A DNA stretch of 64,000 bases from Bilabrum cf. latius. Its lineage: Eukaryota. Below the pieces are notes generated by a model. The model did not search any database. It was not told the DNA's origin and saw nothing but the letters and a program-made list of their open reading frames with translations. How positions within the stretch are numbered: position 1 is the stretch's first letter; each line of letters begins with the position of its first letter. A program made the position numbers and the translations under genes. The stretch lies in assembly GCA_965178125.1 (NCBI GenBank), contig OZ237755.1:620001-684000 (forward strand). Reading direction: 5' to 3'. Below are positions 2,235 through 28,633 of the stretch, piece after piece.

Positions 2235-2298
<64 letters not shown>

Positions 2299-3830: not shown

Positions 3831-4375
3831 TCTGATATGATATCAACCTTGTCTTAGGACGAGAGTTCTGATGTTGTGCCGCCGTAGTGGACTACACCCT
3901 CAAACGGCTGAAGAAAAACCGATATAGGCTCGAACTACAAAACATATCGCAACAAATGATTGGAGCGCGGCCGTTCGTCGGCACAGACGGACCAGCGCAA
4001 GCAAGATGCAAGCGGCTAAGCCAAGAAAGAAGAAGACGCATGTGTGTACGCGCAATCTAGTCTCTTACTCAATCAGACTTGACTAGACCTGACAGAGCTG
4101 TGCGCGAGCGCGACCACTAGCCCATGCTGGGAAGAGCACGTGCGCAGCTCCGCCGAGGGAGAGGAAAGGGTTGTGAGGGTGGGCAGCGAAAGCACCCAGT
4201 CTCTACCCCTCTCCTGCATACAGCGAGGATACGCGCGTCAATGTAAAGCAAACAATTGGAGGCATTGGTAAAGGCGACCGACCACGCCAGGACCCAGCAT
4301 TCCTGCCGGCCCCCTAGGCTTGGCATCAACACTGACTAGCGTAAAGCGGTACGGTGAACTCAGTACCAGCTGCGA

Positions 4376-5987: not shown

Positions 5988-6119
5988 CTGCGAGGCAGCA
6001 ATGGCTCAGCGTGTAAGAATTGGCAAACAGCTCAAACGCCAAGTTTTCCCGGTTGCATGGGAGATTCTCTTCACGTTTAAAAATAAAAAGGCGACGGCAA
6101 AGCATTTTTTCTGGCTAGC

Positions 6120-6187
6120 TGACGTCGGCCGAAAACAAAACAGGAATATACTTAAGTATATTCCTGTTTTGTTTTCGGCCGACGTCA
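6120..6187. repeat. Perfect 68-bp terminal palindrome
   Basis: TGACGTCGGCCGAAAACAAAACAGGAATATACTT|AAGTATATTCCTGTTTTGTTTTCGGCCGACGTCA; also at 29567-29634. Confidence 0.95.
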
Positions 6188-7120
6188 CGCATGCTTCACT
6201 TTTTTAATTTGTTCATATATTCACTTTTATTATTTTTATTTATTTATAAAATTTTAATTTATGTTTTTTTTTATTTGTGTAAAATAATAGAATATTTTAT
6301 TATTGATCGCATGGTATACTTTTTTAATTTTTAAAAAATTTCGCCAACTCATGAAAAAATGATTTTTCATTTTTTTATGATTTTCTCTAAGAAATGGATT
6401 CAAGAATTATTAATATGAAATTTAGATCTTTCGTGTTCTTTCTTTCTATTTTTTTTATATTTCTATTTTTTTGTGCATTAAATATTATTTAAAAATTGTA
6501 AAATTGATGTATTATATTAAATATTTATAATTCGTTGTGTGCATTACTTTTTTATTTTTTATGAAATTTTCGCGGAATAAGAATAAATCAATTTATTGAT
6601 TTTTATCAAAATTTATTTTTATTCGTCAGAATGAAAATTATTAAATTCGAAGAATTTAATTTATTTATTGTTCTATTGAATTTTATTTTTTATAGTTTTT
6701 TTTTACTGTTCAATTTATTGTTTCGCAAACTAAAGTTTGCTATTATTTCGGTTCTTTTGCATTTTATTTTATTATGGGCATTTTTAAGGGACTATTCATT
6801 TAAATATTTTATTGCTCTTTTTAGGGCTCTATAATTTGATTTCATGCATTGGAAAGCTCACTTCGTTCGCTATTAAGGCGATTAATTCAAGCTTTCCATT
6901 TATTCGCTATCGAGATATCCATTTAAATAATTATTAATTCGTACTTTTGCACTCTTTTGATTCGAAGAATCAAAAGGTGCAAAAATACGAATTTAGAATT
7001 ATTCTTTATAGGTAAATAGTAAATTCGTATTTTTACCACTTTTTTAAATCGTAGAATGAAGCACTTTTTATAGAAAGTAATATAGATAAGCAAAATAGAA
7101 TAAATTAATTAAAGGTGATG
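6120..7120. repeat. Left terminal inverted repeat (1001 bp)
   Basis: Reverse complement of 28634-29634. Both ends give the same coordinate sum (35754), so there is no net indel. Confidence 0.95.
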
Positions 7121-7735
7121 CTTAATTTTAAATTGGAGCTGTAATTTTGCATTTAACTCTTCGAATGTGTCATAAACATATATTTGAGAGGGTTGCAGTT
7201 CGGATATTAAATTTGTTCTTTCTCTTCTCATTACTTCTTGTACTTCATTTGTTGCTTCATATACAAGATCCTTAAATAATTTATTTGATGGTGAGGCAAC
7301 GAAAATACTAGTTTTTTTAAATAATTCTTGGGCTAGTTCTAATGATCCAGTCAAACACAACATTCTTTTTTCTTTTTTTGTTAACCATGATTTTTTTAAT
7401 GATTCGTATACTTTCTTTGCCAGTTCTTGATATAATACCCTATATGTTGAGTCATCGCCTGACTCCCTAGCTTTTTCTAATCCTTCTAAAAAAGATTTGT
7501 CCGTATCTGGATGCTTTGATACCAATTCGTCAAGGTCTACGACTAAAAGATTCGTGTCATTTCCTTCAAATTTCTTACACAATGTAGTCTTTCCGCATCC
7601 CTTGGGAATTACAAGACATGCCTTCTTAATGTCAAATGCTTTTTTTACCTTGCCCATGCAGGACACCCCATAATAGCCTAATGCTACTAGAGCCGAAGCT
7701 CCGCTTACTGATGAAATAGCTATTTCTAAAGCCAT
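7109..7735 (-). CDS. P-loop NTPase/kinase-like protein with N-terminal hydrophobic anchor
   Basis: Walker A PKGCGKTT followed by LLVVDLD; TCTA motif 14 nt upstream. Confidence 0.6.
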   Translation of the reverse strand: MALEIAISSVSGASALVALGYYGVSCMGKVKKAFDIKKACLVIPKGCGKTTLCKKFEGNDTNLLVVDLDELVSKHPDTDKSFLEGLEKARESGDDSTYRVLYQELAKKVYESLKKSWLTKKEKRMLCLTGSLELAQELFKKTSIFVASPSNKLFKDLVYEATNEVQEVMRRERTNLISELQPSQIYVYDTFEELNAKLQLQFKIKHHL

Positions 7736-7781
7736 TATATATATAACATTAGATATTTTTTTTTATTATCTTAACTTATAT

Positions 7782-8495
7782 ATGCCAAAAAATAAATTGA
7801 CAAAAAAAGAAATTATACAAATTTTAAAAAAACGAGTAAAGGGCGGGAATGTCTGGGAATTTATTAAAGATGTACCGGTGGGAACTTATAGATTTTTAAC
7901 AAGAAGAAATAAGAAACTACAGCAATTAAGTAAGGAAGCTAAATTACACGCTAAAATTGCACGTCAAACATACCCAAAGACTAAACAAAGGGATATAATA
8001 GACGGTTATCGTGTAATCTTTAAAGATGATAGAAGAAAAATTTATATTAAAAATAAAAATATCATTATTGGAGTTAGGGGTACAGTTGACGGATCGGACG
8101 TTATGGATGATTTAAAGATAGCACAAGGCACACTAGATAAAAGTGAAAACTTTAAAGATCTAGTTGATATTTATGAAGCTGTCAAACAAGCTTTTCCAGA
8201 TCATAATATTTCTTTTGCTTCTCACTCACTGGGTTCTGGGATGGTTGCATATCTTACTAAAAAATACGGTAAAGAAATTAAAGGACATTCATTTAATCCA
8301 GCTTTAAATTTTGAAATGATAAGAGACCCTAAATTTAACATTGGTAATATTAAATATCATGTTGTAGATGGCGACCCTGTAAGTCATAATTTAGCCCAAT
8401 TTATGAATCCTGATCAAGTGACATTTTATACCAGCCCTCATAAAAAGAATAATTATTTTAATGTACATGCTTTAAAGAACTTTACGGATTTATAA
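7782..8495 (+). CDS. Alpha/beta hydrolase (class 3 lipase-like)
   Basis: GVRGT, SHSLG nucleophile elbow, FNP, DPVS and a C-terminal His. Confidence 0.85.
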   Translation: MPKNKLTKKEIIQILKKRVKGGNVWEFIKDVPVGTYRFLTRRNKKLQQLSKEAKLHAKIARQTYPKTKQRDIIDGYRVIFKDDRRKIYIKNKNIIIGVRGTVDGSDVMDDLKIAQGTLDKSENFKDLVDIYEAVKQAFPDHNISFASHSLGSGMVAYLTKKYGKEIKGHSFNPALNFEMIRDPKFNIGNIKYHVVDGDPVSHNLAQFMNPDQVTFYTSPHKKNNYFNVHALKNFTDL

Positions 8496-9110
8496 ATGAG
8501 TGGTTATATAAATTTCTTCTTGCATTCTTCTAAATTCTATTTCAACTTTCATAAAGTCCGTTATCTCTTTTTTATTCAGTTGCCATAAATATAACTTTTC
8601 TAGATGTTTATTAGATTTCTCATTTAAATGGTCAATAACCTCATCAAGGGGTTTTCCCCATAGATATTCATCGATATCGTCTTCAAGTCTCATTATAAAA
8701 TCCATATTTACATATTCTTGAATATAATCAATTAATGGTTTTCTAAAACTTGTAAACTTTCGATTTACGAGTATTGGTTCATTTTTGAATATTTTTTTAT
8801 AATCTAGTGGCATTTGACATCTTAATTTCCTTTTTTCATTTTTGGTTAGTTTATTATATTTTTCATATATGATTGATAATAATTCGGTTCTCTCTTTCTT
8901 GATACGATTTATTGTGTTATGTAAATTTAATAAGTCTTTTTTAATAATTCCATTTTTAAAGAATTCAGGAGGATAACGTTCCATTAAAAACTTACGAAGT
9001 CTTAATAGTGGGGTAATTTTTGAACCTATATAACATTCTACAAATATTTGATCCTGTTGTCTATCTTTTGTGTTTTTATCGAGGAGATCACTCAACATTG
9101 ACATATACAT
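8490..9110 (-). CDS. Hypothetical virophage protein
   Basis: 206-aa ORF in AT-rich DNA, packed between viral genes. Confidence 0.7.
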   Translation of the reverse strand: MYMSMLSDLLDKNTKDRQQDQIFVECYIGSKITPLLRLRKFLMERYPPEFFKNGIIKKDLLNLHNTINRIKKERTELLSIIYEKYNKLTKNEKRKLRCQMPLDYKKIFKNEPILVNRKFTSFRKPLIDYIQEYVNMDFIMRLEDDIDEYLWGKPLDEVIDHLNEKSNKHLEKLYLWQLNKKEITDFMKVEIEFRRMQEEIYITTHL

Positions 9111-9140
9111 TTCAATAAGATTTTTCTTAAAGTTTGTTTC

Positions 9141-9452
9141 TCATAAATTATAAGTCTTTCTATAATTATCTATTGCATCCTTTAAATTGTCCTTTGACCA
9201 TAATATTCTCCAGCTTAACACAGGAGCAGACCAAGGGACATAATCAGCTTTTTCTATATAGTATTTATGTCTTTTTAGCCAGTTGACTTTTTTTTTATTA
9301 TCTTGATGGTCTATGTATGTTTTTCCATTTCTAGCCCCAAAATGCACAATATATTGTTTTGGTTCATAACCTTTTTTAGTTAATTTAAATATTGCCATTA
9401 ATCTTTTATTCTTTCTTGTAGATGGTTTAATATTTAATAATTTAATATCCAT
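9141..9452 (-). CDS. Small basic protein resembling a giant-virus conserved family (DUF5754-like)
   Basis: STRKNKR...VHFGA...YIDH.D..KK..WLKRH...LSWRILW pattern, recognised from memory. Confidence 0.6.
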   Translation of the reverse strand: MDIKLLNIKPSTRKNKRLMAIFKLTKKGYEPKQYIVHFGARNGKTYIDHQDNKKKVNWLKRHKYYIEKADYVPWSAPVLSWRILWSKDNLKDAIDNYRKTYNL

Positions 9453-9462
9453 ATGAATATAT

Positions 9463-9738
9463 ATGAACCATAGAAAATGTTTAGACGGAAAAATTCAAAG
9501 AGCACGAAGACTAATATTAAAATTACAAAATATACATAACGAATTAAATGATCTAAGTGATTTCATACGTGGTGATTTAAAATTTATGTATCTACCTTCT
9601 GATTCCATGGGACATCATAACCGATTCCAAGATAATCTAAGATATGCAAGGGTCAATTTAGAAAAAAGACTAAATAATCTTGAAACAGAATATAAAGAAA
9701 AATATGGAGTTATTCCAGTTTATAAAACTGATGTTTGA
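9463..9738 (+). CDS. Hypothetical virophage protein
   Basis: 91-aa ORF filling the gap between neighbouring viral genes. Confidence 0.5.
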   Translation: MNHRKCLDGKIQRARRLILKLQNIHNELNDLSDFIRGDLKFMYLPSDSMGHHNRFQDNLRYARVNLEKRLNNLETEYKEKYGVIPVYKTDV

Positions 9739-9800
9739 ATTGATCCAAATAGTTTTAATCTATTCTTAAATAAAAATAGAATAAAATTAATGTAATTTAT

Positions 9801-10469
9801 TTAATATCCCTTCTCCTTTAGGAATTTTGATGCTTCGCCTAGTTTCATTCCAGTCTTTTTCATAATCTTTTTTATCATAGCTCCACGTTCTTTCATCTTT
9901 TGTGATACCTTACGTTTCTTACCTCCTGTAGCTTTTTTGCCCATACCTTTCGTGGCTTTCTTTAATGCAAAATTACTAACTTGTCTAACACCTGGAGGTA
10001 AAAAGGAAGTACCAACATCAATTAAAGCGTTTTTACTTGCCTTTTTAGCATTGTATTTTCTGTGATGTTGTAATGCATCTAAGCCTTCCGTAGCATAAGC
10101 TCCTACGTATGGTATCTGACTCGTTGCTACTTTACCCAAAGAATAAAGAACATCATCAGTATCCATATTTTTAAGATCTCTTACGCCCCTTTTTACTGCA
10201 TCGCCAACTTTAGAAACTCCACGTTTTACGGTATTACCAACTCTGGAAAGACCCCTACGCAAGTTTTTCCAAAATGAGCCACCTTTTACTCTTGCATTCT
10301 CTTCGCATTCATAACATAATTTATCAGCTTGAGATTTACCCATTCCGAAAAGTTCCATTACAGCTTGTACATGTTCTTTATGTTCATTGGTTTGTTTTCC
10401 CTTAGAGTTTTTACGTTTAGGTTTTCCAGAACCTATAAGGTCCAAATATTCGTTAACTGTATATTTCAT
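9801..10469 (-). CDS. Basic putative virion core/membrane-lytic protein with diglycine sites
   Basis: Lys-rich; VKGG-SFWKNLRRGLSRVGNTVKRG amphipathic helix; TCTA motif 13 nt upstream. Confidence 0.55.
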   Translation of the reverse strand: MKYTVNEYLDLIGSGKPKRKNSKGKQTNEHKEHVQAVMELFGMGKSQADKLCYECEENARVKGGSFWKNLRRGLSRVGNTVKRGVSKVGDAVKRGVRDLKNMDTDDVLYSLGKVATSQIPYVGAYATEGLDALQHHRKYNAKKASKNALIDVGTSFLPPGVRQVSNFALKKATKGMGKKATGGKKRKVSQKMKERGAMIKKIMKKTGMKLGEASKFLKEKGY

Positions 10470-10529
10470 AATAAATTAATATTAGAAAAAAAATATTAAT
10501 TTATTGTTCTATCTATAACTAATATTTAA

Positions 10530-11102
10530 TTACAAACTATAGAAACGTTCTAAAGTGCAATAACATATTCTAGTTGGATTATTTGAGCTATAATCAATAT
10601 CAATTGAATTCTCACCAGCAAACATTAAACGTATTGCTTTATATCCATGATTTGAATCTAATGAATGTACTAATTGTATTGTTTGGGTAGATTCAGGATT
10701 TATAATATGCCACATCACGGGACAATTAGAAGGGTTAATATCCCATGTATCATCTGAGGCATTCTGAAATTGAAAGGCAATACCTGCAGATCTGACAGCT
10801 GAAGTATTCGTATTAATAAATGACATATTACATTTAATGATACAATTATAAGTGTTGTCTATTGGCATATTGTACGTTCCACCCATGATAGATAATGCCG
10901 TATCTGCAACGGTAAAAGTTGATCCATCGAAAATATTTCCTGGAGCATTTAAAGTTATAGGAGTAGTTCCATTCCCTCTATTTTGGACAAAGTGATATCC
11001 ATTAAATGTCAAATCTTGACCTTTCTTTTTAACATTTATTGCATCAATAGAATTAGCTTTTAAGTCTAGGTTATTTGAAGTTAATAAATTGCTTATACTC
11101 AT
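10530..11102 (-). CDS. Short fibre/receptor-binding-like protein
   Basis: Shares N-terminus MSISNLLxxNNLDLxA with the adjacent 682-aa protein; beta-rich composition. Confidence 0.55.
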   Translation of the reverse strand: MSISNLLTSNNLDLKANSIDAINVKKKGQDLTFNGYHFVQNRGNGTTPITLNAPGNIFDGSTFTVADTALSIMGGTYNMPIDNTYNCIIKCNMSFINTNTSAVRSAGIAFQFQNASDDTWDINPSNCPVMWHIINPESTQTIQLVHSLDSNHGYKAIRLMFAGENSIDIDYSSNNPTRICYCTLERFYSL

Positions 11103-11133
11103 AATACTATATTATTAGAAAAAAAATTTATAT

Positions 11134-13182
11134 TTATTGTATTCTAGAACACCAAGCACCATTAACATTACCTGTTGACCATAATTCTATTTCCATAGTT
11201 TGTAAATTATAATTACGATTAACTGGGGTATTCATTATTGTTGTTGTATTTGTCTGTCTGTTAAATTCGTAAATCCCTGCGGTTGTCGGAATTGAATTCC
11301 CATTCGATACATTACTTGTTTCATAGCGAATAGATACTAATGGTGAATTCTCTATTAGTATTCTATGAACTACCGCTGGATCATTATTTGTACTTTTAAA
11401 TACTGCCAGTTTAATTGTTATTTCTAATAGATTAGTTCTTGTCATAACTCCTATGTATCTAAAAGTATCTTTAATTCCAGGTTGAATTGTGAACGTGTTA
11501 GTATTAGGATCGATAATTTCTTGATTTCTTAGTCCCCGTCTTGGAAATATAGAGTTACTTGTTTCTTTTCCATCTTGTGTATCATATTTAGTACGATATG
11601 ATCCATTAATTAGTATTTCTGAAGTTTGAATTTTAGCGTCTACATTAGTATTACCAAATGTAATACTCTCTAATCCTATGATAGAATTATTATTAGCATC
11701 ATTACCAGTTGTTAACACTGAAGATAAATTAGATTGTGTTGATGGTAAATTATCCACATAAGCTTTAGTTACTGCATCAGTTGACAATGTAGGAGTTGCC
11801 AAATTTGTAATTTTAGTATTATTCATATCTAAATCGTTTAATGTTGTTGCATTTGTGACGTTTAAAGTTCCAGTGACTGCAAGATTAGAACCCATAGCAA
11901 CATTACCTGTAAAATTGCCGTCCCCTTGAACTAAAAAGTTTTGATTTACAATGATACTTTTATTTATTCTAACTCCTCCGTCAAATACAACGCTTTCATT
12001 ATCTGTATTATTAAAATTAACTAATCCGTTAACTTCTAATGCTCCTAGTGTGGATGTTCCAGTGACTCCATGAGTTCCAGAAACGGACACGTTGGATAAT
12101 GAAGATGATCCAGTTACGGACAAATCACCTTTAACGTCTGCGTTTTGTTCAAATGAATGATCTACTTTCGAAATAATTGTTTCTGGTGCTGAATCATTTA
12201 ACCCCACATCAACCCTAAATAATTCTTTATTAGGGTCACCTGAAATATTAGTATTTGGGATTTTTGTAACACTGAATCCTTCATATCCAACGGACATATA
12301 CATGCCATTTCTTGAATTAGTGTTGGGCGTCGTTGGGTCAAATACTTGATTTGATGAATCATACTTTATATTATATCCAATATGTGTATAATCTGTTTGT
12401 CTAGGTCCTGCAGGAAAGCAACCACCCCCAAACATCGCCCCATTTTGATTATATCCAGTTATCCATATACCTTCGTTTGTGTTGGGATTATTGGTGTTCA
12501 AATTTAAAACCTTATTTGGTAAAATCGTTTTAATAATGTTAGCGTCTAACTCTCCATTTACTGAAATATTACCATTAACATTTAAATTTTTGGCAATACC
12601 AACACCACCAGCGGAAACAATAGAACCATTTGTGTGATCACTTGAATCTGTAGTGTCATCTGCATTTATTTGTACTTTTGAGTCAACAGTTGAACCTAAA
12701 TATAAATTGTAATTTTCCCATCCTGTAGTTCTTTGATTTCCTGACTTATTACCTGTCCAAAAATATATATTTCTTTCTCCATTTCTTTCATCGGAATAAA
12801 TACCCATAGCAGGTTTCCAGTTAGCTGTTGGGTCTCCTCCTTCAATCAATAATGCACCTTCTGGGATTGTCATGGTTGTACCCCATCCGCTGTCATGTGC
12901 AGAACTAAAACCTTCTAAAGTTAAAGCATTGGCATTTACATTACCTCCAATATTTGCATTTCCAGTAGTTCCAATAGTTCCAACATTTTGAATGTTACGA
13001 CCGTTTGCATTGTCTCCAATGGTCAAAACTTGATCGATATTTGCACCATCCCCTGCTATAGCTGCGTCGACATATTCCTTCGTTGCTAGTTGGGTATTTT
13101 CTGTTATTCTTGTATTTGAAACAATGACACGACTAGCTCTAAGATCCAAATTATTATTTGATAGTAAATTAGATATACTCAT
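11134..13182 (-). CDS. Long fibre-like protein
   Basis: N/G/T-rich beta repeats, xTKxYVD neck motifs (LATKEYVD, AVTKAYVD), GGVGIAKNL repeats typical of viral fibres. Confidence 0.65.
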   Translation of the reverse strand: MSISNLLSNNNLDLRASRVIVSNTRITENTQLATKEYVDAAIAGDGANIDQVLTIGDNANGRNIQNVGTIGTTGNANIGGNVNANALTLEGFSSAHDSGWGTTMTIPEGALLIEGGDPTANWKPAMGIYSDERNGERNIYFWTGNKSGNQRTTGWENYNLYLGSTVDSKVQINADDTTDSSDHTNGSIVSAGGVGIAKNLNVNGNISVNGELDANIIKTILPNKVLNLNTNNPNTNEGIWITGYNQNGAMFGGGCFPAGPRQTDYTHIGYNIKYDSSNQVFDPTTPNTNSRNGMYMSVGYEGFSVTKIPNTNISGDPNKELFRVDVGLNDSAPETIISKVDHSFEQNADVKGDLSVTGSSSLSNVSVSGTHGVTGTSTLGALEVNGLVNFNNTDNESVVFDGGVRINKSIIVNQNFLVQGDGNFTGNVAMGSNLAVTGTLNVTNATTLNDLDMNNTKITNLATPTLSTDAVTKAYVDNLPSTQSNLSSVLTTGNDANNNSIIGLESITFGNTNVDAKIQTSEILINGSYRTKYDTQDGKETSNSIFPRRGLRNQEIIDPNTNTFTIQPGIKDTFRYIGVMTRTNLLEITIKLAVFKSTNNDPAVVHRILIENSPLVSIRYETSNVSNGNSIPTTAGIYEFNRQTNTTTIMNTPVNRNYNLQTMEIELWSTGNVNGAWCSRIQ

Positions 13183-13952
13183 TTTATAAATTAAGATTAG
13201 AAATTTATTCTAACTTTAATTTAATATATTATAATTTTTAAGTTTCTAATGTTCCCATTATTTCGGCTACTAGGTCGTCATCTGCATCGTCTGCTTCTCC
13301 TTCTGATTCACTTTCAAATAACACTGCTAGTCCATCGGCTTCGTCACCTTCACCATCGGCTACTCTTCTTCTTCTTTCTCTTCTTTCTTCTCTTCTTTCT
13401 TCTCTGGTTCTTGCTCTGTCTTCTCTAACTCTTTTCATTTTATTGGCTCTTCTTTTAAACCTATTGAATAATTGCACCTTACGCACTCTGTCGGCTTCAG
13501 CTGCAAGTACTTTTGCTTCGTCTCTGAGTGGTTGCATTTTTGCTCTTAATTCTGTTAGTGTTTCTCTTGCTCCTTCAAAAGCTTTTTTCTTTTCTCGTAA
13601 GTCTTTAGCTTCTTTGAATTCTCTCAATCTTTCATTTAATTCTTCTTCACGTTCTTCTATTTCATTTCTCACACTTGCTTTAATTTCTGGGAAACTTGCT
13701 TTAACCTCTTTTAATATATTGCGCACATCAACTAAATCTTGAATCGGAGAGGCTGAAACATACTTTTCATATAAATCAACAAAATCTTCGGCACTAAGTC
13801 CTTTAATATCTCTATTATAATTTAAACCTTTCTCGTCTCTTTCTGATGGTGTTAATATTTCATCTAAGAAAGTATTAAATTTACCTTTTAATGATGATAT
13901 CTGTCTTTTAACGTCTCGCATTTCTGTAGGTAATGGTTTAGCACTCTTTAAT

Positions 13953-14128
13953 TGATCCTAACGCCGGATGGGGTTCGGTGTTGATGCCAGAGTGGGAGCG
14001 CGTGAACGTCTCGTTGGGTTCCGATGGCGGTTGCGACCGGGAAGGTGCGACCAAGCCAACGGATTGCTTGCGATGACGCGCATACCCTCTCTGTGTTCAG
14101 GAGAGGGGCGGAGATTGGGTAATTTTTG
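13953..14128 (+). repeat. Ngaro repeat A1 (176 bp; A2 at 16233-16408)
   Basis: Direct repeat at offset 2280. Confidence 0.92.
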
Positions 14129-15148
14129 GGCCTCACCTACGACTTGATCAAACACGAGGTGCGGTGCCCTAAGGACAAGGCCACCGACGTCCTGCGCAGA
14201 CTGCACGAGGCACTCACGACGAAGGGGATGCTGCTGTCTAGCTTTGAGACCTTGGTCGGCAAGTTGTCCTTCCTGTCGGGCGCACTTTATGGTATGCGCG
14301 GTGCTCTACGTCCCCTGTATGACGCCAAGGGCTGGGCCCTTCACAAGTAGGCCAGCCGGTCACGACCAGGTGAGGTGTGGGTCCCCACCTCCTTCGTGTC
14401 CAAGGGTGGCTTCACAGTTGGGGAAATCCTCGAGGGATTCCAGGTGGCTATCCAGCGCAAAGGCGGGCGCAGTTTTCCGATGCGGGGCACCATTGACTGT
14501 CCCATCATTCGCACTGATGCGTCGGTGACAGGCTACGGCGCCGAGCTACTTCTCCACGACACGGACGGAAACATCACATCGCACACCGGCATCCACGGCA
14601 CTTGGCCGCATCGCCTAGAGGCGAAGGATGTAGCGGCGGCAGAACTTGCAACATGTTTGTTGGCACTGGCGCATTGGCGACAGCACCTGCGTGGACGTGT
14701 GGTGCGTTTGTGGTGTGATAATGATGCTTCCGTGTAGCTGATACGCTACGGCAGACCCAAGAGCCACATCATGGCAGCCTTACTTCGCCCTATCTTCGTA
14801 CTGCAGACAACGCAAGATGTGCAGATTCACGTGAAACACATTCCTGGCGAGGACAACATCGTTGCGGACGCTTTGAGCCGCGGCTCACAGGAGGCATACA
14901 CGCACCTGGACGCGGTGTATCAGGTCGACTGTCCCACGCCGATCTGGAGGACCTTGTACAAGCACGACCATTTCACGCTGGTGGCCACTCTGGACTCAGT
15001 GGGTTGCGCACGGCGTGGGGGCACTTCGACAACTTCCTCACGTGGTACGACATCGACCGCAGCTTCATGGACGGGCATCTTCCAGCAGCTCGCAGACTCT
15101 TCGCGTTCAGGCTCAATGCAGCGCTCTCGAGATTTGCAGTCTTCTTAG
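14123..15148 (+). pseudogene. 5'-truncated reverse transcriptase (from the FLG motif) plus RNase H
   Basis: FLGLTYD, LVGKLSF, IRTDASVTGYG, AELA, WCDN, HIPGEDNIVADALSR in one frame across TAGs at 14348-50 and 14735-37. The frame stays open to TGA 15866-68 if TAG is Gln. No YxDD region. Confidence 0.85.
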
Positions 15149-16062
15149 GGGAATGTTCGCCTCTCAGTGGCGGCACCATCGCTACATACACCAGAAATGC
15201 CTAGCGAGTCGTCATCGAGTCCACAGGAGCGTGCGGCGTCCCACGGTCAAGCTAGCTCGACAGCATCCTCCGGTACTACCACAAAGCATCGCCATCGGCG
15301 CACCCGTGGCGTCGATCTTCAGCCCCACTCCGCGCAATCCGACGGTGTTTCTCGACAGCCGGTTGCAGCACAACAGAGTAGGCTGCTCGGGCAGCTGTCT
15401 GTCTCTGCTTCTGTGGGGGCCTCCGGCTGGGAGAGCTCGTCGGTGCGTCCAGACGACAAGCCGGCCTCCAATGGCAGCAAGTGCAGTTCATCACGCGAGA
15501 CGGACGCATCCATGGTGTTGCCATCCGCCTGGGCCTCCACAAAGCCGACGGTCCAGCCAAGTTCTCCATCCAAGCCGCAGAGCCCATCGCAGTCCATTGC
15601 AGAGCCGGACGATGGGCAGTCACAGGCAGCAGGTTCTGCGGCGTGCGAGCCTTCGTGGCGTGGGCAGCAGCGAGCCACGCCCCAACTGCAGGCGCAGACG
15701 AAGACTACGCCCGGTAGCTGGCGCTCAGCTGCCCCACGTCAGGGCCAGTCTTCGTGGCGAACACGAAGCCGATCGTCAAGGCGCAGGTCGTACGGGCGCT
15801 CCGCAGCTTCTGCTCACGAGAAGTTGCAGGAGCGGTGCACGGACATTCCATCCGCATCGCGGCAGTGATGTGTTTGGACCGTGCTGGGGTCGCCTTCGAG
15901 GTCATTAGGCGATTCGGCAGATGGAAGTCGGCATCTGCATGCGAGGTGTACTTGCGGGGCGTCAGGGAAGGCTTGCCTCCTCTGGAGCTCGGCGGCAGGA
16001 GCCTCGATTTGAACAGGCCAGTGTGGGTGCTGGCCAGCGCGCTGCGGCTGAACTTGGAGTGA
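15004..16062 (+). CDS. DIRS/Ngaro tyrosine recombinase (start uncertain; four in-frame TAG)
   Basis: GGLRLGEL, HSIRI, GRWKS and VYLR catalytic motifs in one frame (ORFs 15004, 15481, 15754); ends at TGA. Confidence 0.88.
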
Positions 16063-16102
16063 GCCACACAGCCGCAGCGTACAAGACATGGCGGTAAGAT
16101 TT

Positions 16103-16233
16103 GGCGGAGTAGTGCACGTGCTCTTCCCAGCCCCGGTCAGTCCGGTCAAGGGTAGCGCACAGGCACAGCTTTGTCAGGTCTTGCCATGTCTGATTGTTAA
16201 CGAGACTAGGTTGCGCGTACACTCTGGCATCAT
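16103..16233 (+). repeat. Ngaro repeat B1 (131 bp; B2 at 16435-16565)
   Basis: Direct repeat at offset 332. Confidence 0.92.
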
Positions 16234-17436
16234 GATCCTAACGCCGGATGGGGTTCGGTGTTGATGCCAGAGTGGGAGCGCGTGAACGTCTCGTTGGGTT
16301 CCGATGGCGGTTGCGACCGGGAAGGTGCGACCAAGCCAACGGATTGCTTGCGATGACGCGCATACCCTCTCTGTGTTCAGGAGAGGGGCGGAGATTGGGT
16401 AATTTTTGCCCACCCTCCCAACCCCCTCCTCCTCGGCGGAGTAGTGCACGTGCTCTTCCCAGCCCCGGTCAGTCCGGTCAAGGGTAGCGCACAGGCACAG
16501 CTTTGTCAGGTCTTGCCATGTCTGATTGTTAACGAGACTAGGTTGCGCGTACACTCTGGCATCATCATAAAATTTATTTCTTTCTGAAAAATCAGTTACA
16601 ATTATCTCAATTAAATCCTCTTTAGATAATTCTTTTTCTCTTACTAATTCTGCAACATCTCTATCAGGTTCAACCGCTTGAACATCTCTTATTAACATTT
16701 GTAACGGTCTATCTTTTAAAATACCTCTTAGTTCTTCTTGTGCATTCGTAATATCCCTATCAATTGCAGAACGTGGACTTTTAAATTTAGATAAATCTTT
16801 ACCCAGCATTGTTTCAATTCTAAACCTAAGCTCTGTTTTTGGTACTCCGTCGGGTATTTCTAAACCTTTTCGTATTTCTTCAATTTCTTCATCACTAAAT
16901 TCATCAATTTTAGTTGTGCTTAACTGTTTTAGTAATACTTGAAACTGTGCATCAGTAATTAATTTATTTGTCGCCAAACTTTCAAGTTCTAATGTTTTAT
17001 TTTGAATTTTTACTTTTTCTCTTTCACTTGATGGTAATGTTTCAATTTTTCCTACGAATTGCTTTAAAAAACTATTAACCCTGCCGATCATTGGTAAACT
17101 TGGGTTTTCTTTTAACATTATTTCCTTCATTCTATCTAAATTAACATTAATTTTTGTTGCATTGTCAGAATTTAAACCATCAACTAGTTCGGATACAACG
17201 GTTCTTAATACTGAGTCCATACGTTGCTCTCTTCTTCTAAGCTCTAGGGGCTGAAATTGCGACGATAACACTATATCATCCCTTCTTTTTTGATCTCTTA
17301 AAGCCTCTAAAATAGATTGTCTTTCATTCTTTAAACTTAAATTTCTATTTTCTACTCCTTTATTGGATTCTTGACGTCTTATATTTTGCTGTCTTAGTAT
17401 ATTTCTTAATTCAGTTGACATATAATATATTTACAC

Positions 17437-17454
17437 TAGAAAAAAATTAATCTA
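17437..17454. promoter_or_regulatory. Back-to-back TCTA late-promoter motifs for the two divergent genes
   Basis: TAGA 17437-40 and TCTA 17451-54 are each 15 nt from an ATG; the same motif precedes most viral genes. Confidence 0.65.
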
Positions 17455-17469
17455 ATGTTATTCTATATA

Positions 17470-18318
17470 ATGGAAATTAACAATAAAACCATCAAACTAT
17501 TTAATACTGACCATTCCGCATTGTTTAAAGATCTTATGTTAATAAAAGATGCAGATATGTTATTAAATGGTTCTTTTCCTATTTCATTTTTTGCTTCTGA
17601 TCTTGATTTATATATGAAATTAGAAATGAAACAATATAAACTTCTTTTACGTGAACTATTCAGCTTTCTAATTGACATTGGTGATCACATAGATGTTAGT
17701 GAACTTAAAATAGGTAAAAAGAAAGCAGGAACACAAAGAAAAGCTATCAAATTACTTGCTGATGAACTAGAAAACCCAAAGTATATTAACCAAGATAAAA
17801 AATGGGTTAAACTTGATTTAATAGTATTTACTAATGGGTATTATGAAGAGGTTACGATAATTTATGATTTTGGTGATTCAATTATGGGAAAAACTAAAGA
17901 TGAAATAACAGAAGATTTAATAGAAGACGCCATGAAATTGGAAAAAGAAGGAAAATATTATAAAGCCCTTAAGAGATTGCGTGAGATATACCGAAGAACA
18001 GGATACGACGATAAAATGGAAGAAATTAATAGTTTGTTAAGTTCTGACAATGTGGGTTTTTTATATCTTACTAATGCAAGACTTGAAGCACTTAAAAATG
18101 TACGAGATACAACGGCAACTAAAAACTATGTTATGAATAATATTAAAGAGGATTTAATGGTTAGACTTAAAAATATGTTTAATTTGGATCTTAAGAAATC
18201 AGATTTTAAAATGAAAAATATTAGTAAAATACAAAAAGAAGTTATGAAAAAATTACATTCTTATATCACAAATGACGTTAAAAACGAAATTAAGGCATTC
18301 AAGCGTTTAATTAAATAA
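17470..18318 (+). CDS. Putative Pol-beta superfamily nucleotidyltransferase
   Basis: LLNGSFPISFFASDLDLY matches hGS...DhD; candidate third Asp in VKLDLIV. Start chosen by TCTA spacing (alternative 17455). Confidence 0.55.
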   Translation: MEINNKTIKLFNTDHSALFKDLMLIKDADMLLNGSFPISFFASDLDLYMKLEMKQYKLLLRELFSFLIDIGDHIDVSELKIGKKKAGTQRKAIKLLADELENPKYINQDKKWVKLDLIVFTNGYYEEVTIIYDFGDSIMGKTKDEITEDLIEDAMKLEKEGKYYKALKRLREIYRRTGYDDKMEEINSLLSSDNVGFLYLTNARLEALKNVRDTTATKNYVMNNIKEDLMVRLKNMFNLDLKKSDFKMKNISKIQKEVMKKLHSYITNDVKNEIKAFKRLIK

Positions 18319-18411
18319 CATTTTAAAATTGTTGCATGACTATCTTTCTTTTTTTGTCAAATTCAAAAAATATTTTCTATTATATAAATATTATCTATAC
18401 TAAATTATAAT

Positions 18412-19473
18412 ATGTTTAGTTACAGCGGAGGAGATGATTCAATACCCATTGCATACCGTAAATATACAGGTAATAACCAGCAAAGCAAGAATAAAATATT
18501 ATATTATGACAATGAATGTAAAAATAAAGAATTAGAGCCCGAAGATATTACAGATGACCAATTATATGCAATCTTTGGAACTCATGCGGTAAGATCAAAG
18601 AAAGCTAAAGAACAGAAAAAGCAAGAATTAATAAATTTATATAATGGAACAGAAGAAGCCCAAAAATTCAACAGTGAAGAGATAAAAGATAAATCAATGT
18701 TTCGAGTTATTCCGTATTCACTAGGTCATACTGAAGATGACTCATTTAATAGATTCGTATTCTTTTTAAATGGTAAGTCTGGTTCTGGAAAGTCATATTT
18801 TTCAACTGAAATAATGGAAATGTCACGAAAATTTGGAATTAAAAAGATTTATGTGATCACGGATGTCAAAGATTCTAAATTTGGAAAAGTGAAATATTTA
18901 GATATTAATTCATTAGTTGGTGAAAATGTGAGCCATGAAGACGCAAAAAAAGAGTATGAAAAAGCAAAGATTAAATTTAAATACAAAAAGAAAATGTATG
19001 CAGATGACCCAGAAATGCTAATGAAGTTAGAATTAATGTTACATGATATGAAACCAGACGGAAAAGGCAAAGATAAATTTGAGTTTAAAATAGATCAAGA
19101 AGCAAGAGATGCTATATTTCAAGATTCATTAGTTTTATTTGATGATTACGAAAATAACCCAGATATTGGAAAGATTGAATTTTTAAGGGACACCCTATTA
19201 ACCAAGGGGAGACACACTAAGACTAATTTAATTATATGTAATCACAAAGGGTCAGATGGTGCACATATGAAGTTAATTAAAATTGAAACGACCGATTATG
19301 TATTTTTTAGTAAAGGTACAGACCATGAACGTAATTATTTATTAAGAACTTATTTAGGATTCAATAAAGAACAAATTAAAAGGGTTAAACTAGCATTGAA
19401 AAAATCTAGATGGATTAGTATAAACCCAGATATAGGCTATATGATAAGTCAAAAGGAAGCGATAAAAATTTAA
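18412..19473 (+). CDS. FtsK-HerA-type genome packaging ATPase
   Basis: GKSGSGKS, LVLFDD, KGRH arginine finger, LIICNH. Confidence 0.9.
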   Translation: MFSYSGGDDSIPIAYRKYTGNNQQSKNKILYYDNECKNKELEPEDITDDQLYAIFGTHAVRSKKAKEQKKQELINLYNGTEEAQKFNSEEIKDKSMFRVIPYSLGHTEDDSFNRFVFFLNGKSGSGKSYFSTEIMEMSRKFGIKKIYVITDVKDSKFGKVKYLDINSLVGENVSHEDAKKEYEKAKIKFKYKKKMYADDPEMLMKLELMLHDMKPDGKGKDKFEFKIDQEARDAIFQDSLVLFDDYENNPDIGKIEFLRDTLLTKGRHTKTNLIICNHKGSDGAHMKLIKIETTDYVFFSKGTDHERNYLLRTYLGFNKEQIKRVKLALKKSRWISINPDIGYMISQKEAIKI

Positions 19474-19504
19474 GTTATAATAATTTTCTTAACTATTTAT
19501 ATTA

Positions 19505-20068
19505 ATGGATAGCGAAGAATTAAAAAAACTTGTTGGAACATATCTTAGTCCTCAAGAATTAAAAGAACTATGGAACAAACATCCACACACCAAAGGTTCA
19601 GCTCCTCGTGTTGTATTATATGACGATATTATAAATTCTCCATCAATTAAATCATTATTTCAAGGAGATAATAAATTAATTGTATTTTATCCAATGATTA
19701 AACAAGGAAATGCAACATCGGGGCATTATGTAGCTTTAACAAAAAAGGGAAATACTATTTATTTTTATGATAGTTACGGCGGACTCCCTGATGTTGGGCA
19801 AAAAAAATATGCAGATTTGAATTTATATCAAGAATCTAATAATACACTGATTAGACATTTATTAGATAGTGGATATGACGTGGATTATTCACCATATAAG
19901 CATCAAGGAGAAGGTTCTCATATAGCGAGTTGTGGAAGGCACTCATTAAACCGCGTACACTATGCCGATCTTACAAATGATCAATATAATCAACTAATGC
20001 AAGAGGCAAAAAAGAAACTTAAAAATAGACATTCAATAGATGAAATAGTTACGATGGCTTTTCATTAA
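19505..20068 (+). CDS. Maturation cysteine protease (adenain/Ulp1-like)
   Basis: GHYVAL...FYDSYG...HQ...SCGRH, giving the H-D-Q-C arrangement. Confidence 0.9.
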   Translation: MDSEELKKLVGTYLSPQELKELWNKHPHTKGSAPRVVLYDDIINSPSIKSLFQGDNKLIVFYPMIKQGNATSGHYVALTKKGNTIYFYDSYGGLPDVGQKKYADLNLYQESNNTLIRHLLDSGYDVDYSPYKHQGEGSHIASCGRHSLNRVHYADLTNDQYNQLMQEAKKKLKNRHSIDEIVTMAFH

Positions 20069-20129
20069 GGAGTATAAAAAAGCGATAGAGTCAAGCCTCC
20101 ATATATTGAACTCTTAATATTTACAATTA

Positions 20130-20211
20130 AGTTAAATCCAAATTCGTACTTATTGCACCCTTTTGATTCTCCGAATCAAGAGGGTGCAAAAGTACGAATT
20201 TGGATTTAACT
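20130..20211. repeat. Long imperfect hairpin homologous to the TIR hairpins (6936-6993, 28761-28818)
   Basis: Arms AAATTCGTACTT.TTGCACCCT.TTGATTC / GAATCAA.AGGGTGCAA.AAGTACGAATTT with a 3-nt loop. Confidence 0.85.
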
Positions 20212-20396
20212 AATATACCGTATTTTCTAAATTCGTATTTTTGCACCTTTTAGGTAGAATTTATAGCCCATAGAATTTAACGCCTTTTATGATTAATCAT
20301 TATCACTTTTTAGTCAGAATTTAACGCCTTTTTTGGTGGTAAAACGCGGGGGTAAAATATCTAAAGAAAAAAATATATAGTATTTATATATATAAA

Positions 20397-23318
20397 ATGT
20401 CAGAATTCAAAGTAACAAAACTATTAAACCTTGAATGGTACAAGAACACAAAAAAATCTAACTGGTCAGGTGCTCAGGATCACGTAATCAAGAATAGAAA
20501 AGATAAAGAAATGGTTATTAAATCATGGACTAAAAAGCACGGTCAAATGTGGACATCATGCAAACCAGAAATGGCGAAGAAACTATTAAACAAAAACCGC
20601 GGAATTTATGAGTACATTATAGATTATCCTTTTAAAGTTTATTTCGATATTGACCATAAAGGAAAAGATGAAACTTTATTAAATACGGTTCTTGATAATA
20701 TTAAATCTAGTTTTCCAAATGCAAAAATTGCAGTTAGTGGATCTATTACAGACGAAAAAACAAGTTATCATATAACACTTAATAATTATGTTATTGAAAA
20801 TGAAGAACAAAGAACCGAATTTTTAGGATGGCTTAAAGATCAAGGCAAACCATACGATCCATGTGTATATAAAAAAAACCAAACTATGAAATGCCCTAAT
20901 CAGTCAAAACAAAATAGAGAAATTCAAAAGATTATTAGTGATGACAATTTAGAACATCATTTAATAAGTTCTTTTATTCCTTCTCATACTGAACCATTCC
21001 CCAAACTTCTTACAAGCAATAAATTAAATGAAATTAAACAAGAAAATCAAAGAAAAGGATTCGATATTTCAAAACTCCCAAAATTAACCCTTAAAATTCC
21101 CAATTCAACCAGCTTAAACCCTGATGCTTTAGAACTTCTTAACTTAGCCCCTCTCAATGAGAATTTTGATCATGGATATACACATTTTGCTTGTCGTTTT
21201 GCTTTCCATAATGATATATGCTTTAATGATTTTTGGAAATGGAACAGTAAAAAGAATAATTCTAATGATCGTATGGCTAAGTGGTTTAAACATTGGGACA
21301 AAATGGAAACGTTCCCCCCTGTATCTATATCAAACTTTCAATTTATGCTTTATAAGTTTTACCCTGATATTTACAAAACTAGAGCATTTAGAAAATTCAA
21401 ACAGATGACAGATATTAAATATGATACATTAACTGAATATTTAACCGTTCAAGATATTGACACATTACATAAATATAGTATATTGGCCCATCCCATGGGT
21501 TGCGGTAAGACGACCAATGTCATAAATTATATTTGTAAGAATAAAAACAAAAATGCAATTTGGATAACTCCACGCCGTGCATTGGCAAGAAACACAGCCC
21601 AAAGATGCGACAATGCAGGACTTGAAATGAAAAATTATTTAGATTACAAAAACAGCAGGGAAAAAATGGAGGAATTACCACAACAACAACAATTAATTAT
21701 TAATACTCAATCTTTGTTTTATCTTCATGATAATGAAGAAGAGGCAAAATATGACATTGTTGTTATTGATGAAATTGAAACAGTTCTTAAATCATGGACA
21801 GCATATACAACATTCAAAGGTAAGAATTTAGAAAAATGTTGGACCACTTTTATTAAAATTCTTAAGTCAGCAAAAAAAGTTATTTTATTGGATGCTTTTA
21901 TTACTGATATTACATTAAACTTTATTGATCGTTTTGATGGTTCAGCTTATAAAAATATTATTGGAGCTAAAAATGCACCAGTTGGACGTAAAATGAAGTT
22001 TTTGACTGAAAGAACACTTTCAGTATGGCTTAAATATATTATTGATGACTTGAAGAATGAAAAGAAATTATTTATTTTTTATCCTTATAAAAAGGATTCT
22101 TCTAAATTTCCATCAATGGAAAAATTAAAGGCAGAACTGGAAAAGAAAACAGAAAAAAAGGGTATTTGTTACCATGGAGACAGTGGTGTCAATGTTAATA
22201 ATACATTAAAAGATGTAAATAAGCATTGGTCAGATTATGATTTTATTTTAACTAATAGTAAAATCACGGTTGGAGTAAATTATGATAAAAAGAAATTCGA
22301 TCGTGTATATTTGGCATTGTCTGGGTTTAGTTCTCCACGTGATGTGATCCAAGCATCTTATAGAATCCGTAATATATCCGACAATGAAGTAATATCAACA
22401 ATTTTAAATTTAAATAAATTTTCAGGAACTGATGAAAGCTATAGAGTCAAAGACAAGAATTTTAAAAAGCTTGTTAATGATTTAATGGTCGAGGATTCCT
22501 CCCCAATTGTTGAAACATTTAAATTATTTTCACATAAAGCACATTATAAATTTATTGATGTTCCTATTCATTTAAATAAAAAAGAAGAAAGAGAATATTT
22601 GAAATACCTTCAAGAGGATGACACATATTACAGCTGGGATTCAATCCCTTGTTTTAACAAAAAATATAAAGAACTTGCAGAAAAGGAAACAAAAAAGAAC
22701 CCATTGGATACTGATATTTTAGATGAAATAGAACAATTAAAAAAAAATGAAATTGAAGCGGTACAATCTAGAATATACGCAGGTTGTGCATCAATGGAAG
22801 ACACGTTGACAATGCAAAAGTATTATTTCCAAAAGGTATTTAATGAAAAAACAACAGTGGAACAAATGGCTAAAGCTTGGGATGGTAAATATAATGAATT
22901 CATTAATAAGTACATTTTTTTTTTCAATATCGAAATCAAAAAAGGAGCTGTTCATTTAAAAGAAACCTCAAAAATGAAGAACATATTAGATCAATTGAAT
23001 CTAAATTTAAATTCAACAGTTGAAAAGATTGAAAAATGCAAATTAACAGACAAACAAAAAGAAGAAATTAATAATTATATTTTGGATAACAACAAATTAA
23101 ATAACTCATCTAGTATTAAATATATTAGTAAACTTATCAATACATTTTTTGGTGGTTATCATATCACTTATAAACAAACCAAAAGCAGAAATGGAGAATA
23201 TAAAAGATCAAATAAATTCAGTCAAATGATTGAATTCTGTCAAGATCATATTTATGACTTTGAAGATGATAATGAAGAAGACGACGGAGTTTTTCATGAA
23301 GATGATTTATTTGAATAA
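20397..23318 (+). CDS. AEP primase fused to an SF2 helicase (herpes UL9/origin-binding-like)
   Basis: YFDID and SYHI primase motifs; PMGCGKTT, IDEIE, LLDA, TVGVNY and QASYRIRN helicase motifs. Confidence 0.85.
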   Translation: MSEFKVTKLLNLEWYKNTKKSNWSGAQDHVIKNRKDKEMVIKSWTKKHGQMWTSCKPEMAKKLLNKNRGIYEYIIDYPFKVYFDIDHKGKDETLLNTVLDNIKSSFPNAKIAVSGSITDEKTSYHITLNNYVIENEEQRTEFLGWLKDQGKPYDPCVYKKNQTMKCPNQSKQNREIQKIISDDNLEHHLISSFIPSHTEPFPKLLTSNKLNEIKQENQRKGFDISKLPKLTLKIPNSTSLNPDALELLNLAPLNENFDHGYTHFACRFAFHNDICFNDFWKWNSKKNNSNDRMAKWFKHWDKMETFPPVSISNFQFMLYKFYPDIYKTRAFRKFKQMTDIKYDTLTEYLTVQDIDTLHKYSILAHPMGCGKTTNVINYICKNKNKNAIWITPRRALARNTAQRCDNAGLEMKNYLDYKNSREKMEELPQQQQLIINTQSLFYLHDNEEEAKYDIVVIDEIETVLKSWTAYTTFKGKNLEKCWTTFIKILKSAKKVILLDAFITDITLNFIDRFDGSAYKNIIGAKNAPVGRKMKFLTERTLSVWLKYIIDDLKNEKKLFIFYPYKKDSSKFPSMEKLKAELEKKTEKKGICYHGDSGVNVNNTLKDVNKHWSDYDFILTNSKITVGVNYDKKKFDRVYLALSGFSSPRDVIQASYRIRNISDNEVISTILNLNKFSGTDESYRVKDKNFKKLVNDLMVEDSSPIVETFKLFSHKAHYKFIDVPIHLNKKEEREYLKYLQEDDTYYSWDSIPCFNKKYKELAEKETKKNPLDTDILDEIEQLKKNEIEAVQSRIYAGCASMEDTLTMQKYYFQKVFNEKTTVEQMAKAWDGKYNEFINKYIFFFNIEIKKGAVHLKETSKMKNILDQLNLNLNSTVEKIEKCKLTDKQKEEINNYILDNNKLNNSSSIKYISKLINTFFGGYHITYKQTKSRNGEYKRSNKFSQMIEFCQDHIYDFEDDNEEDDGVFHEDDLFE

Positions 23319-23435
23319 AAAAAAAGAATATTACAAGAGAACTAATGAAATAATTTAATTAGAAAATACATCATTATTAACAGTTTAAAACGTACTTAAA
23401 CAATATTTTTTATATAAGCATATATTATATAAAGA

Positions 23436-24419
23436 ATGTCTTTTTATGAAAAAATACAAAATCTTGAACCTAAAATGTCTATTTTTGATAAAATACAAAA
23501 AATAAAGCCCAATCTTGCCGAAAAAAGCATAGATGATTATATTAGAATCTATGAAAAAATAGAGAAACAAGATAAACCAATAATTGAATACTTAAAAGAT
23601 GATGTACCACAATCTAACCAATCATCTTTTTTACATAAATATATAACAGTTTGTAAGGCAATAAATAAACATTATGATGAAACATTAAATAAACAATTAA
23701 TTGAATTGAAAAAAAACAACAAATATTATAATAAAAATGCCAAGGAACATATCAAAGGTTTTAAATATTTTGATATTGAAAAGAAATTAAAAGAAATTGA
23801 AGGAGGCAATAATAATAAAATGAATGAATATAGAGCATGGCTTTTATCTCTTTACGCATATATGCCACCTCTTAGAGTCACGGAATGGTTAACAACTAAA
23901 ATATTAGATACTGACAACCACGAAGAAGAAAATAAATTATTGTTAGATGATAAAGAGATCCACATATACGATCATAAAACTAAAAAGTCTAACGGTGTCA
24001 AATATATTAAAGTTCCAGATAGTGTTATTTATTATTGTAAGCATTTTAAAGAAAAATATAAATGTGAATATGTTTTATCTCCATTCAAGAATCCAAATAA
24101 AAAAAATGATCAATCCAGTATAACAAAAATATTAAACAAGATTTTCAAAAAGAAAGTTTCTATTAATGATTTTAGAAATGTATATATTAGTGAGAAAATG
24201 AATAAAGGAACGTTATTTACTAATGATGAAAGAGAAGACTTAGCCCGTGTTATGGGAAATTCACCAAGCACTCAAATGTTAACATACACTAAATATTGTC
24301 AATCTAATAATAATGATAAAAAACCAGAAGATGCTATATTATCTATGATTAATGATAAGTCAAAACAGGAACAAATAAAAATATTATTAAATTGCATGAA
24401 TAAATTGAATTCATCTTAA
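23436..24419 (+). CDS. Tyrosine recombinase-family protein
   Basis: PPLRVTE, HKT, NDFRNVYIS and LARVMGNSPSTQMLTY motifs. Confidence 0.8.
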   Translation: MSFYEKIQNLEPKMSIFDKIQKIKPNLAEKSIDDYIRIYEKIEKQDKPIIEYLKDDVPQSNQSSFLHKYITVCKAINKHYDETLNKQLIELKKNNKYYNKNAKEHIKGFKYFDIEKKLKEIEGGNNNKMNEYRAWLLSLYAYMPPLRVTEWLTTKILDTDNHEEENKLLLDDKEIHIYDHKTKKSNGVKYIKVPDSVIYYCKHFKEKYKCEYVLSPFKNPNKKNDQSSITKILNKIFKKKVSINDFRNVYISEKMNKGTLFTNDEREDLARVMGNSPSTQMLTYTKYCQSNNNDKKPEDAILSMINDKSKQEQIKILLNCMNKLNSS

Positions 24420-25589: not shown

Positions 25590-25662
25590 AAATACTAATA
25601 ATTTTAGTTTAGAAATAAATCTAAATTAAAATCTTTTAATTAACACAATAACATTAATTTAT

Positions 25663-27456: not shown

Positions 27457-27526
27457 AATAAATTAACATTAGAAAAAAATTATTATATTTTTGTCTAATT
27501 GATTATTAAAACTTATATTATTTTTA

Positions 27527-28417: not shown

Positions 28418-28633
28418 AATATTATATAGTTAGAAAAAATATATAGTTTTTATTTTCGCTTTTTTTTTCTTGTGTATAATTATATAGATACGATATAGGG
28501 ATTTAATCGGCTTGAAGTGTCTATGTCATTTGTTTTTGAGTTGTTCATGTTAGCCAGACATTGTTTTATATATATCTACATACTTTTTAGTGTGTATCTA
28601 TATAACTTTTAATTTTTAACTTTTAAAATAAAA

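Follow-up and report, generated by a model that had tools for sequence, protein, structure and literature searches.

Introduction

Ngaro retrotransposons are known from within the endogenous mavirus-like elements (EMALEs) of Cafeteria burkhardae, in a report that left open whether Ngaros use virophages as vehicles (Hackl et al. 2021, PMC8547959). Here, a 64,000-nucleotide stretch of DNA from Bilabrum cf. latius (GenBank assembly GCA_965178125.1, contig OZ237755.1, positions 620,001 to 684,000; hereafter the window, to which all positions refer) was analyzed, in which a Ngaro-type retrotransposon copy is nested in an integrated virophage, within a host that reads TAG as a sense codon. We consider it likely that the copy derives from a Ngaro family written in the TAG-sense code of the host, and that the copy in the window is a 5'-deleted derivative of this family, situated in a virophage gene. 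Ngaros inside endogenous virophages are already known, and what is added here is the nested Ngaro/virophage pair in a recoded host; no description of a virophage or a Ngaro in such a host was found in the literature searched. Ciliate transposons use the ciliate code, and NCBI table 15 is named alongside the UAG-only nuclear codes.

The likeness to the Ngaros of the Cafeteria EMALEs rests on their published description rather than on a comparison of sequences. As described in PMC8547959, the two systems share a GC-rich insert in an AT-rich integrated virophage, the order A1-[ORFs]-B1A2B2 of repeats and open reading frames (ORFs), and a recombinase with HxxR and Tyr downstream of the reverse transcriptase (RT)/RNase H; in both there are AB repeats standing alone in host DNA, variants deleted at the 5' side and insertions in virophage genes. 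In contrast, the host DNA is ∼60% GC here, with TAG as sense, and 70% GC in Cafeteria, and the term "genetic code" occurs 0 times in PMC8547959. The copy described here is ∼2.6 kb long and has also lost the RT core, whereas the Cafeteria elements are ∼6 kb; the Cafeteria copies lacking ORF1 (type 2b all, type 1 mostly) lie in host DNA, whereas the present one lies in a virophage (PMC8547959).

Three further systems provide points of reference. The idea that variant codes act as barriers to viruses and to gene transfer is a long-standing one, and a tombus-like endogenous viral element of Blastocrithidia triatomae uses the non-canonical code of its host, which, its authors argue, "locks" it in (PMC11108086). 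Like the present element, it is a genetic parasite whose frame carries the reassigned stop codons of the host; however, it is what remains of an RNA virus, and its host has reassigned all three stops, whereas we deal here with a multi-copy retrotransposon whose host has reassigned TAG alone and which sits inside a DNA virus that avoids TAG. The reassigned codon has been eliminated from a totivirus of CUG-Ser yeasts (Taylor et al. 2013, PMC3628385), which thus avoids it as the virophage here avoids TAG; in that double-stranded RNA virus the change is from sense to sense, whereas here it is from stop to sense, so that TAG is avoided as a stop as well. Finally, UAG-only nuclear codes have been reported in Iotanema spirale, where UAG is glutamine and UAA is still a stop, and in the rhizarian exLh, where UAG is leucine (Panek et al. 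2017, PMC5304391). The present host resembles these in that TAG is sense and its frames end in TGA (7/8) or TAA (1/8), and differs from them in being GC-rich and intron-poor.

Anatomy of the Ngaro-type insert

The insert at 13953-16568 (∼2.6 kb) has split direct repeats in the order A1-[ORFs]-B1-A2-spacer-B2 and a GC content of ∼60%, inside an AT-rich virophage. It is a copy of a Ngaro-type (DIRS-order) tyrosine-recombinase retrotransposon, the repeat order being defined as in Hackl et al. 2021 (PMC8547959). Its parts, all on the forward (+) strand, are as follows.

13953..14128, +, Ngaro repeat A1, 176 nucleotides (nt), 100% identical to 16233-16408
14123..14989, +, C-terminal part of RT ("FLGLTYD" onward) and RNase H, frame A (Pfam RVT_3), with in-frame TAG at 14348-14350 and 14735-14737
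14926..16062, +, tyrosine recombinase (YR), frame B (-1 relative to frame A), with TAG at 15202, 15253, 15379 and 15715 and TGA at 16060-16062
15146..15148, +, third TAG of frame A, 3' of the RNase H domain (stop scan)
16103..16236, +, Ngaro repeat B1, 134 nt, 99% identical to 16435-16568
16233..16408, +, Ngaro repeat A2, 100% identical to A1
16409..16434, +, 26-nt C-rich spacer from A2 to B2
16435..16568, +, Ngaro repeat B2, 99% identical to B1

Frame A (14123-15148) matches Pfam RVT_3 with an E-value of 3.1e-06 (27.5 bits, above the cut-off of 21.6), and its only stops are TAGs, at 14348, 14735 and 15146. The strings TDAS, AAE, DND and ADALSR, which we take to be the catalytic motifs of RNase H, are all present, and two of them (DND and AD.LSR) recur in three distant relatives (L001, L003 and L005; tblastn). 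Frame B (14725-16062) is interrupted only by its four TAGs, before the terminal TGA at 16060. Its match to PF00589 in the window copy (E 1.7e-04 at 21.8 bits; 22.8 bits when scored along with the family members) is below the cut-off of 27.1, and the domain was found in 4/4 aligned family members (best E 8.3e-06). Three recombinase homologues were identified, at 63% (P0001), 49 and 54% identity. Residues R145, K184, H285, R288, W311 and Y320 (numbered on the 14992-16059 query), presumably the catalytic ones, are invariant in 4/4 aligned sequences. A preliminary description of this DNA, made from the letters alone, had stated that the catalytic motifs are intact; this is borne out for the recombinase R/K/HxxR/W/Y set and the RNase H strings, while the polymerase core of the RT is missing.

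Indeed, the copy in the window is not a full Ngaro member but, to judge from its structure, a 5'-deleted and non-autonomous derivative. Frame A starts in the middle of the RT at 14126-14128, immediately 3' of repeat A1, and the C-terminal RT motif is preceded by no more than the frame A codons 14123-14128, which are shared with the end of A1. Neither a polymerase core nor a Gag-like ORF1 was found in the sequence of the insert (13953-16568), and lacking them the copy is incapable of autonomous movement. In three public runs (X1, X3 and X8), contigs match from 14126 on and continue upstream with other sequence, in one X3 contig for 3003 nt, and the same 30 loose letters stand 5' of 14126 in all three runs. 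Since these contigs run on upstream of 14126, longer copies of the family exist, and they share its TAGs.

Stop codons in the element

Within the RNase H and recombinase domains, there are 0 TGA codons, TAA codons or frameshifts. Over the two coding spans, the in-frame stops comprise 6 TAG and 0 TGA/TAA, versus 5 TAG and 17 TGA/TAA off-frame, the latter counted by hand from the listed stop positions (one-sided Fisher P = 0.0012). The initial observation that both frames are broken by TAG alone is thereby confirmed, with two TAGs in the RNase H domain and four in the recombinase domain, in addition to the extra frame A TAG at 15146. When the codons of the element are submitted to a model of random nonsense mutation, the expected share of TAG is 0.44-0.46 and the probability of 6/6 TAG is 0.008-0.010. 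The density of TAG in the element (6/667 codons, 0.90%) is close to that in the host frames described below (0.78%), and the GC contents at third codon positions (GC3) are 0.69-0.71 and 0.65, respectively. In DNA as GC-rich as this, open frames arise easily and have little meaning alone; the signal resides in the spectrum of stops.

The antisense frame at 14973-16136 was also considered as a coding frame and rejected: the Pfam matches are on the forward strand, and two of its TAGs are palindromic to sense TAGs. This frame appears to be "TAG-only" because the recombinase TAGs at 15202-15204 and 15253-15255 sit in CTAG palindromes.

In a host with the standard code the recombinase would be truncated, as the preliminary description had proposed, given that the TAGs occur at a host-like density and are common to the contigs of the family. 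The predicted cut falls at codon 93 of the 14926-16059 frame, before the catalytic domain.

Genetic code of the host

With TAG read as sense, the host DNA in the window contains frames of 2947, 1739, 1674 and 1141 codons, carrying 24, 22, 14 and 5 TAGs, respectively. Taking TGA as sense instead gives at most 991 codons, in a virophage ORF that has no TGA in frame, and at most 922 in host DNA; under the standard code the longest frame is again the same virophage ORF of 991 codons. Eight host frames together contain 79 in-frame TAGs in 10,081 codons (0.78%), and the TAG-bearing frames include the Pfam domains UCH, CFA20 and C2H2. These frames indicate that the host reads TAG as sense, a TAG-only reassignment in a eukaryote of ∼60% GC. 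The proposal that the host has recoded TAG and that the element makes use of it is thus upheld by the read-through of host frames, the host-like density of TAG in the element and the occurrence of the same TAGs in three runs.

The residues that face TAG in homologues point most often to glutamine. In the host USP, site 671 faces Q, Q and D, while site 904 faces Q (in the fragment P0013, 91% identical), K, G and T; overall, Q accounts for 4/14 aligned residues over the three sites of this protein, a small number of sites. One of the two CFA20 TAG sites faces S/R/E. In the element, TAG 15253 faces Q and Q in the recombinase homologues, 15715 faces Q, L and E, 15379 faces H, P and A, and 15202 faces F and L. 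TAG 14735 of the RNase H frame faces Q, H and H in the distant relatives L001, L003 and L005; these were the ones of use, for this one site, among 10 loci, all distant (24-39% identity), that were recovered from metagenome contigs with the recombinase alignment A2. Glutamine opposite the TAGs of the element is far above its background frequency, though not at every site. It is the plurality residue opposite TAG, not the rule, and on these few sites is most likely the best reading.

In the database, the host USP is most closely matched by short pieces of 83-151 amino acids at 63-93% identity, which suggests that standard-code gene calling was applied to a TAG-sense relative.

The host genes (1-6031 and 30702-64000) are long and apparently intron-poor, with in-frame TAG throughout. 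Two of the long frames contain perfect tandem peptide repeats: that of 2947 codons (46850-55693) has about eight copies of AEEAADAGAGND near its C-terminus, and that of 1674 codons (39794-44818) has three copies of SSESASVTAECAQAVV.

Other copies of the element

The main contigs of runs X1, X3 and X8 span 14126-16132, with 1+0, 1+0 and 7 differences from the window, respectively. All seven TAGs are kept in these contigs, and none of the differences, all of which are listed, falls at a TAG site. Five of the seven X8 differences are synonymous in the domain-bearing frame and two are not (I>L and W>L), which may hint at purifying selection, on few differences. A diverged copy, seen in X1 and X8 (23 and 19-26 other letters), covers 15709-16168; it has no change at TAG 15715 among the differences listed, nine of the 23 in its first piece being outside those listed. 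The two A repeats are 100% identical, and the TAGs were therefore already in the template when the window copy was made.

Position 15308 is G (TGG, Trp) in the window copy, as against T (TTG, Leu) in the main contigs from X1, X3 and X8, a change private to the window copy.

The preliminary description had suggested looking at the TAG sites in other copies, which should either be conserved or alternate with glutamine codons. The near-identical copies keep them all, and the homologue P0001 (63% identity) has glutamine at 2/4 recombinase sites; at the other two, in variable columns, it has F and H.

The Ngaro family is resident in this host in many copies, as indicated by several observations: repeat A has several different flanks in X8 (6 contigs before 13953), A-spacer-B joints are found in X1 and X8 contigs, with the same 26 spacer letters, and the window itself contains a relic:

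4044..4240, -, partial solo A-spacer-B relic of a related Ngaro subfamily, 76% identical over 206 nt to A2-spacer-B2

This relic sits between two host genes, on the strand opposite to that of the insert. Word depths in X8 (683 for the internal contig, 67 for the virophage flank) are not copy numbers and were not used as such. Coverage by the runs is uneven (X1 and X3 have none on 13600-13863, and X10 covers 12/30 bins), and no inference was drawn from the gaps.

In the viral contig collection, no relative of the recombinase was found with either the single sequence or alignment A2, and no match to a 34-nt word of repeat A. A search of the PDB with the recombinase profile returned a sole match, rejected as chance-level (E 0.45). 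AlphaFold2 run on alignment A2 yielded a poor model, with a mean predicted local distance difference test score (pLDDT) of 49.1 and a predicted template modelling score (pTM) of 0.42.

The carrier virophage

The surrounding element has the following features.

6120..29634, no strand assigned, integrated AT-rich virophage carrying the Ngaro insert, 23.5 kb (inverted ends, GC, Pfam)
6120-7132 and 28622-29634, inverted ends of the virophage, 1013 nt, 100% identical
13238..13957, -, C-terminal half of the virophage ORF split by the insert (one open frame once the insert is removed)
16566..17421, -, N-terminal half of the same split ORF
20397-23318, +, helicase (Pfam)
24411-25589, -, rve integrase (rve E 2.8e-16; weak chromodomain match, E 0.0047, below cut-off)
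25663-27456, -, V20-type major capsid protein (PF22031, E 1.7e-13)

The GC content of the virophage is 0.24-0.35, versus 0.56-0.64 in the flanks. In-frame removal of the Ngaro insert restores one virophage ORF of 528-530 codons. For the packaging ATPase there is a weak AAA_14 match only (7109-7735; E 0.0022, below cut-off), neither a protease nor a penton was recognised by Pfam, and no relative of the capsid protein was found in the viral contig collection. On its gene content and ends, we assign 6120-29634 to the integrated mavirus-type virophages.

A 1373-nt contig of X8 matches the virophage flank exactly up to 13953 and then continues for 622 nt unlike repeat A1; it may represent a virophage copy or allele without the Ngaro (an empty site).

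The coding frames of the virophage avoid TAG. None of the 5,892 codons of the 18 ORFs tallied is TAG, the 205 glutamine codons being CAA (179) or CAG (26), and the virophage frames that can be extended by read-through gain TAG solely upstream of their start codons. The stops of 19 ORFs with GC <0.40 comprise 15 TAA, 4 TGA and 0 TAG. TAG makes up 290 of 1,569 stop triplets, so that ∼18% TAG stops would be expected; the probability of 0/19 is then ∼0.02, an arithmetic estimate that constitutes weak evidence. As the virophage ORFs use TAG neither as sense nor as stop, their products are the same under both codes, in agreement with the earlier proposal that the virophage is portable between them. 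The absence of TAG fits adaptation or neutrality toward a TAG-sense host.

Weighing the explanations

In the explanation that we favor, cytoplasmic translation in the host would read TAG as an amino acid, most likely glutamine, with TGA and TAA remaining as stops. TAG would be an ordinary sense codon in the RNase H and recombinase genes of the family, and their proteins would be full length in such a host only. Full-length members of the family would presumably be active, and the copy in the window would either have entered the virophage gene as it stands or have been shortened later inside that gene.

Several observations weigh against this explanation. The other copies seen are 99.6-99.95% identical, and the retention of their TAGs consequently says little about selection. 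Recombinase sites 15202 and 15379, both in variable columns, face a residue other than glutamine in every homologue; among host sites, USP site 738 faces A, M, K, G, R, Q and P (1 Q in 7), and TAG 110 of CFA20 faces a conserved F. No tRNA gene was detected by ARAGORN in the 64-kb window. Searches with the RNase H frame gave no homologue in the protein collection (including proteins of 319-1017 amino acids, searched with region 1-290) or in the PDB. Two frames without claim to a domain share the pattern of stops: the one at 14877-16097 is also open save for TAG, and the antisense frame at 14973-16136 has 4 TAGs and no other stop. The expression of the two genes raises its own difficulties. A scan for start codons found no ATG in frame B before 15067, a position that already lies 3' of the motif conserved at the N-terminus, and within 14700-15150 frames A and B are not joined by any X XXY YYZ slip site. 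In addition, with TAG as sense, frame A stays open past 15146 to the TGA at 15866.

The statement that the YR is intact in this host therefore holds for its interruptions, which are TAG only, and is weakened by the lack of an ATG before 15067. A CTG at 14929 stands opposite the Met of homologue P0001, and the recombinase might be started at a non-AUG codon or reached by a frame change from ORF2. The extension of frame A (15146-15868) runs across the recombinase gene in a different frame; where TAG is sense, ∼240 residues would be appended to ORF2, barring a switch of frame by the ribosomes.

The better surviving of two rival explanations, which we nevertheless deem improbable, holds that the TAGs are nonsense mutations in a decaying, non-autonomous lineage that is moved in trans and makes no working proteins. 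The window copy is indeed without Gag and RT core, an ATG is missing where frame B should begin, single-step nonsense changes in GC3-rich genes most often give TAG (the expected share of 0.44-0.46 given above), and a CAG>TAG mutation would also leave glutamine opposite TAG in the homologues. However, decay of this kind would have had to produce six TAGs out of six (P ∼0.01) with 0 indels in either domain, in an insert whose A and B repeats, at 100% and 99% identity, testify to little change since insertion. Moreover, the same TAGs recur in the main contigs of three runs, which continue into longer copies, 5/7 of the differences from X8 are synonymous, and TAG is read through in this host anyway.

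Least probable is that the element uses the host code with TAG standing for a residue other than glutamine (e.g., Leu or Tyr) or being ambiguous in its decoding. TAG 15202 is indeed aligned with F and L, one of the three residues opposite 15715 is L, a conserved F is opposite CFA20 TAG 110 and the nuclear code of a rhizarian has UAG=Leu (Panek et al. 2017, PMC5304391), but Q is the commonest residue opposite TAG and is found in the closest relatives (P0013 at 91%, P0001 at 2/4 sites, and both homologues at 15253), and Y occurs at no site.

Implications

If the family is written in the TAG-sense code, as we favor, it is plausible, as a logical step, that the code would block virophage-borne spread of the retrotransposon, a putative effect that the preliminary description had also advanced. 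The copy in the window is itself a poor candidate for such spread, because it is 5'-deleted and non-autonomous and splits a virophage gene of ∼527 codons. A broader proposition, which we consider rather unlikely, is that the retrotransposon is locked into the TAG-sense lineage while the virophage is TAG-purged and code-neutral, the code acting as a one-way filter on hitch-hikers. If this were true, the virophage and its giant-virus helper would cross between codes, and the retrotransposon that they carry would arrive dead.

For annotation, standard-code gene callers would fragment both the host genes and this transposon family, and the short database pieces suggest that this has already happened. 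The locus brings together a code-dependent retrotransposon, a code-neutral virus and a host with a reassigned stop codon, and may thus serve as a natural test system for the idea that variant codes act as barriers.

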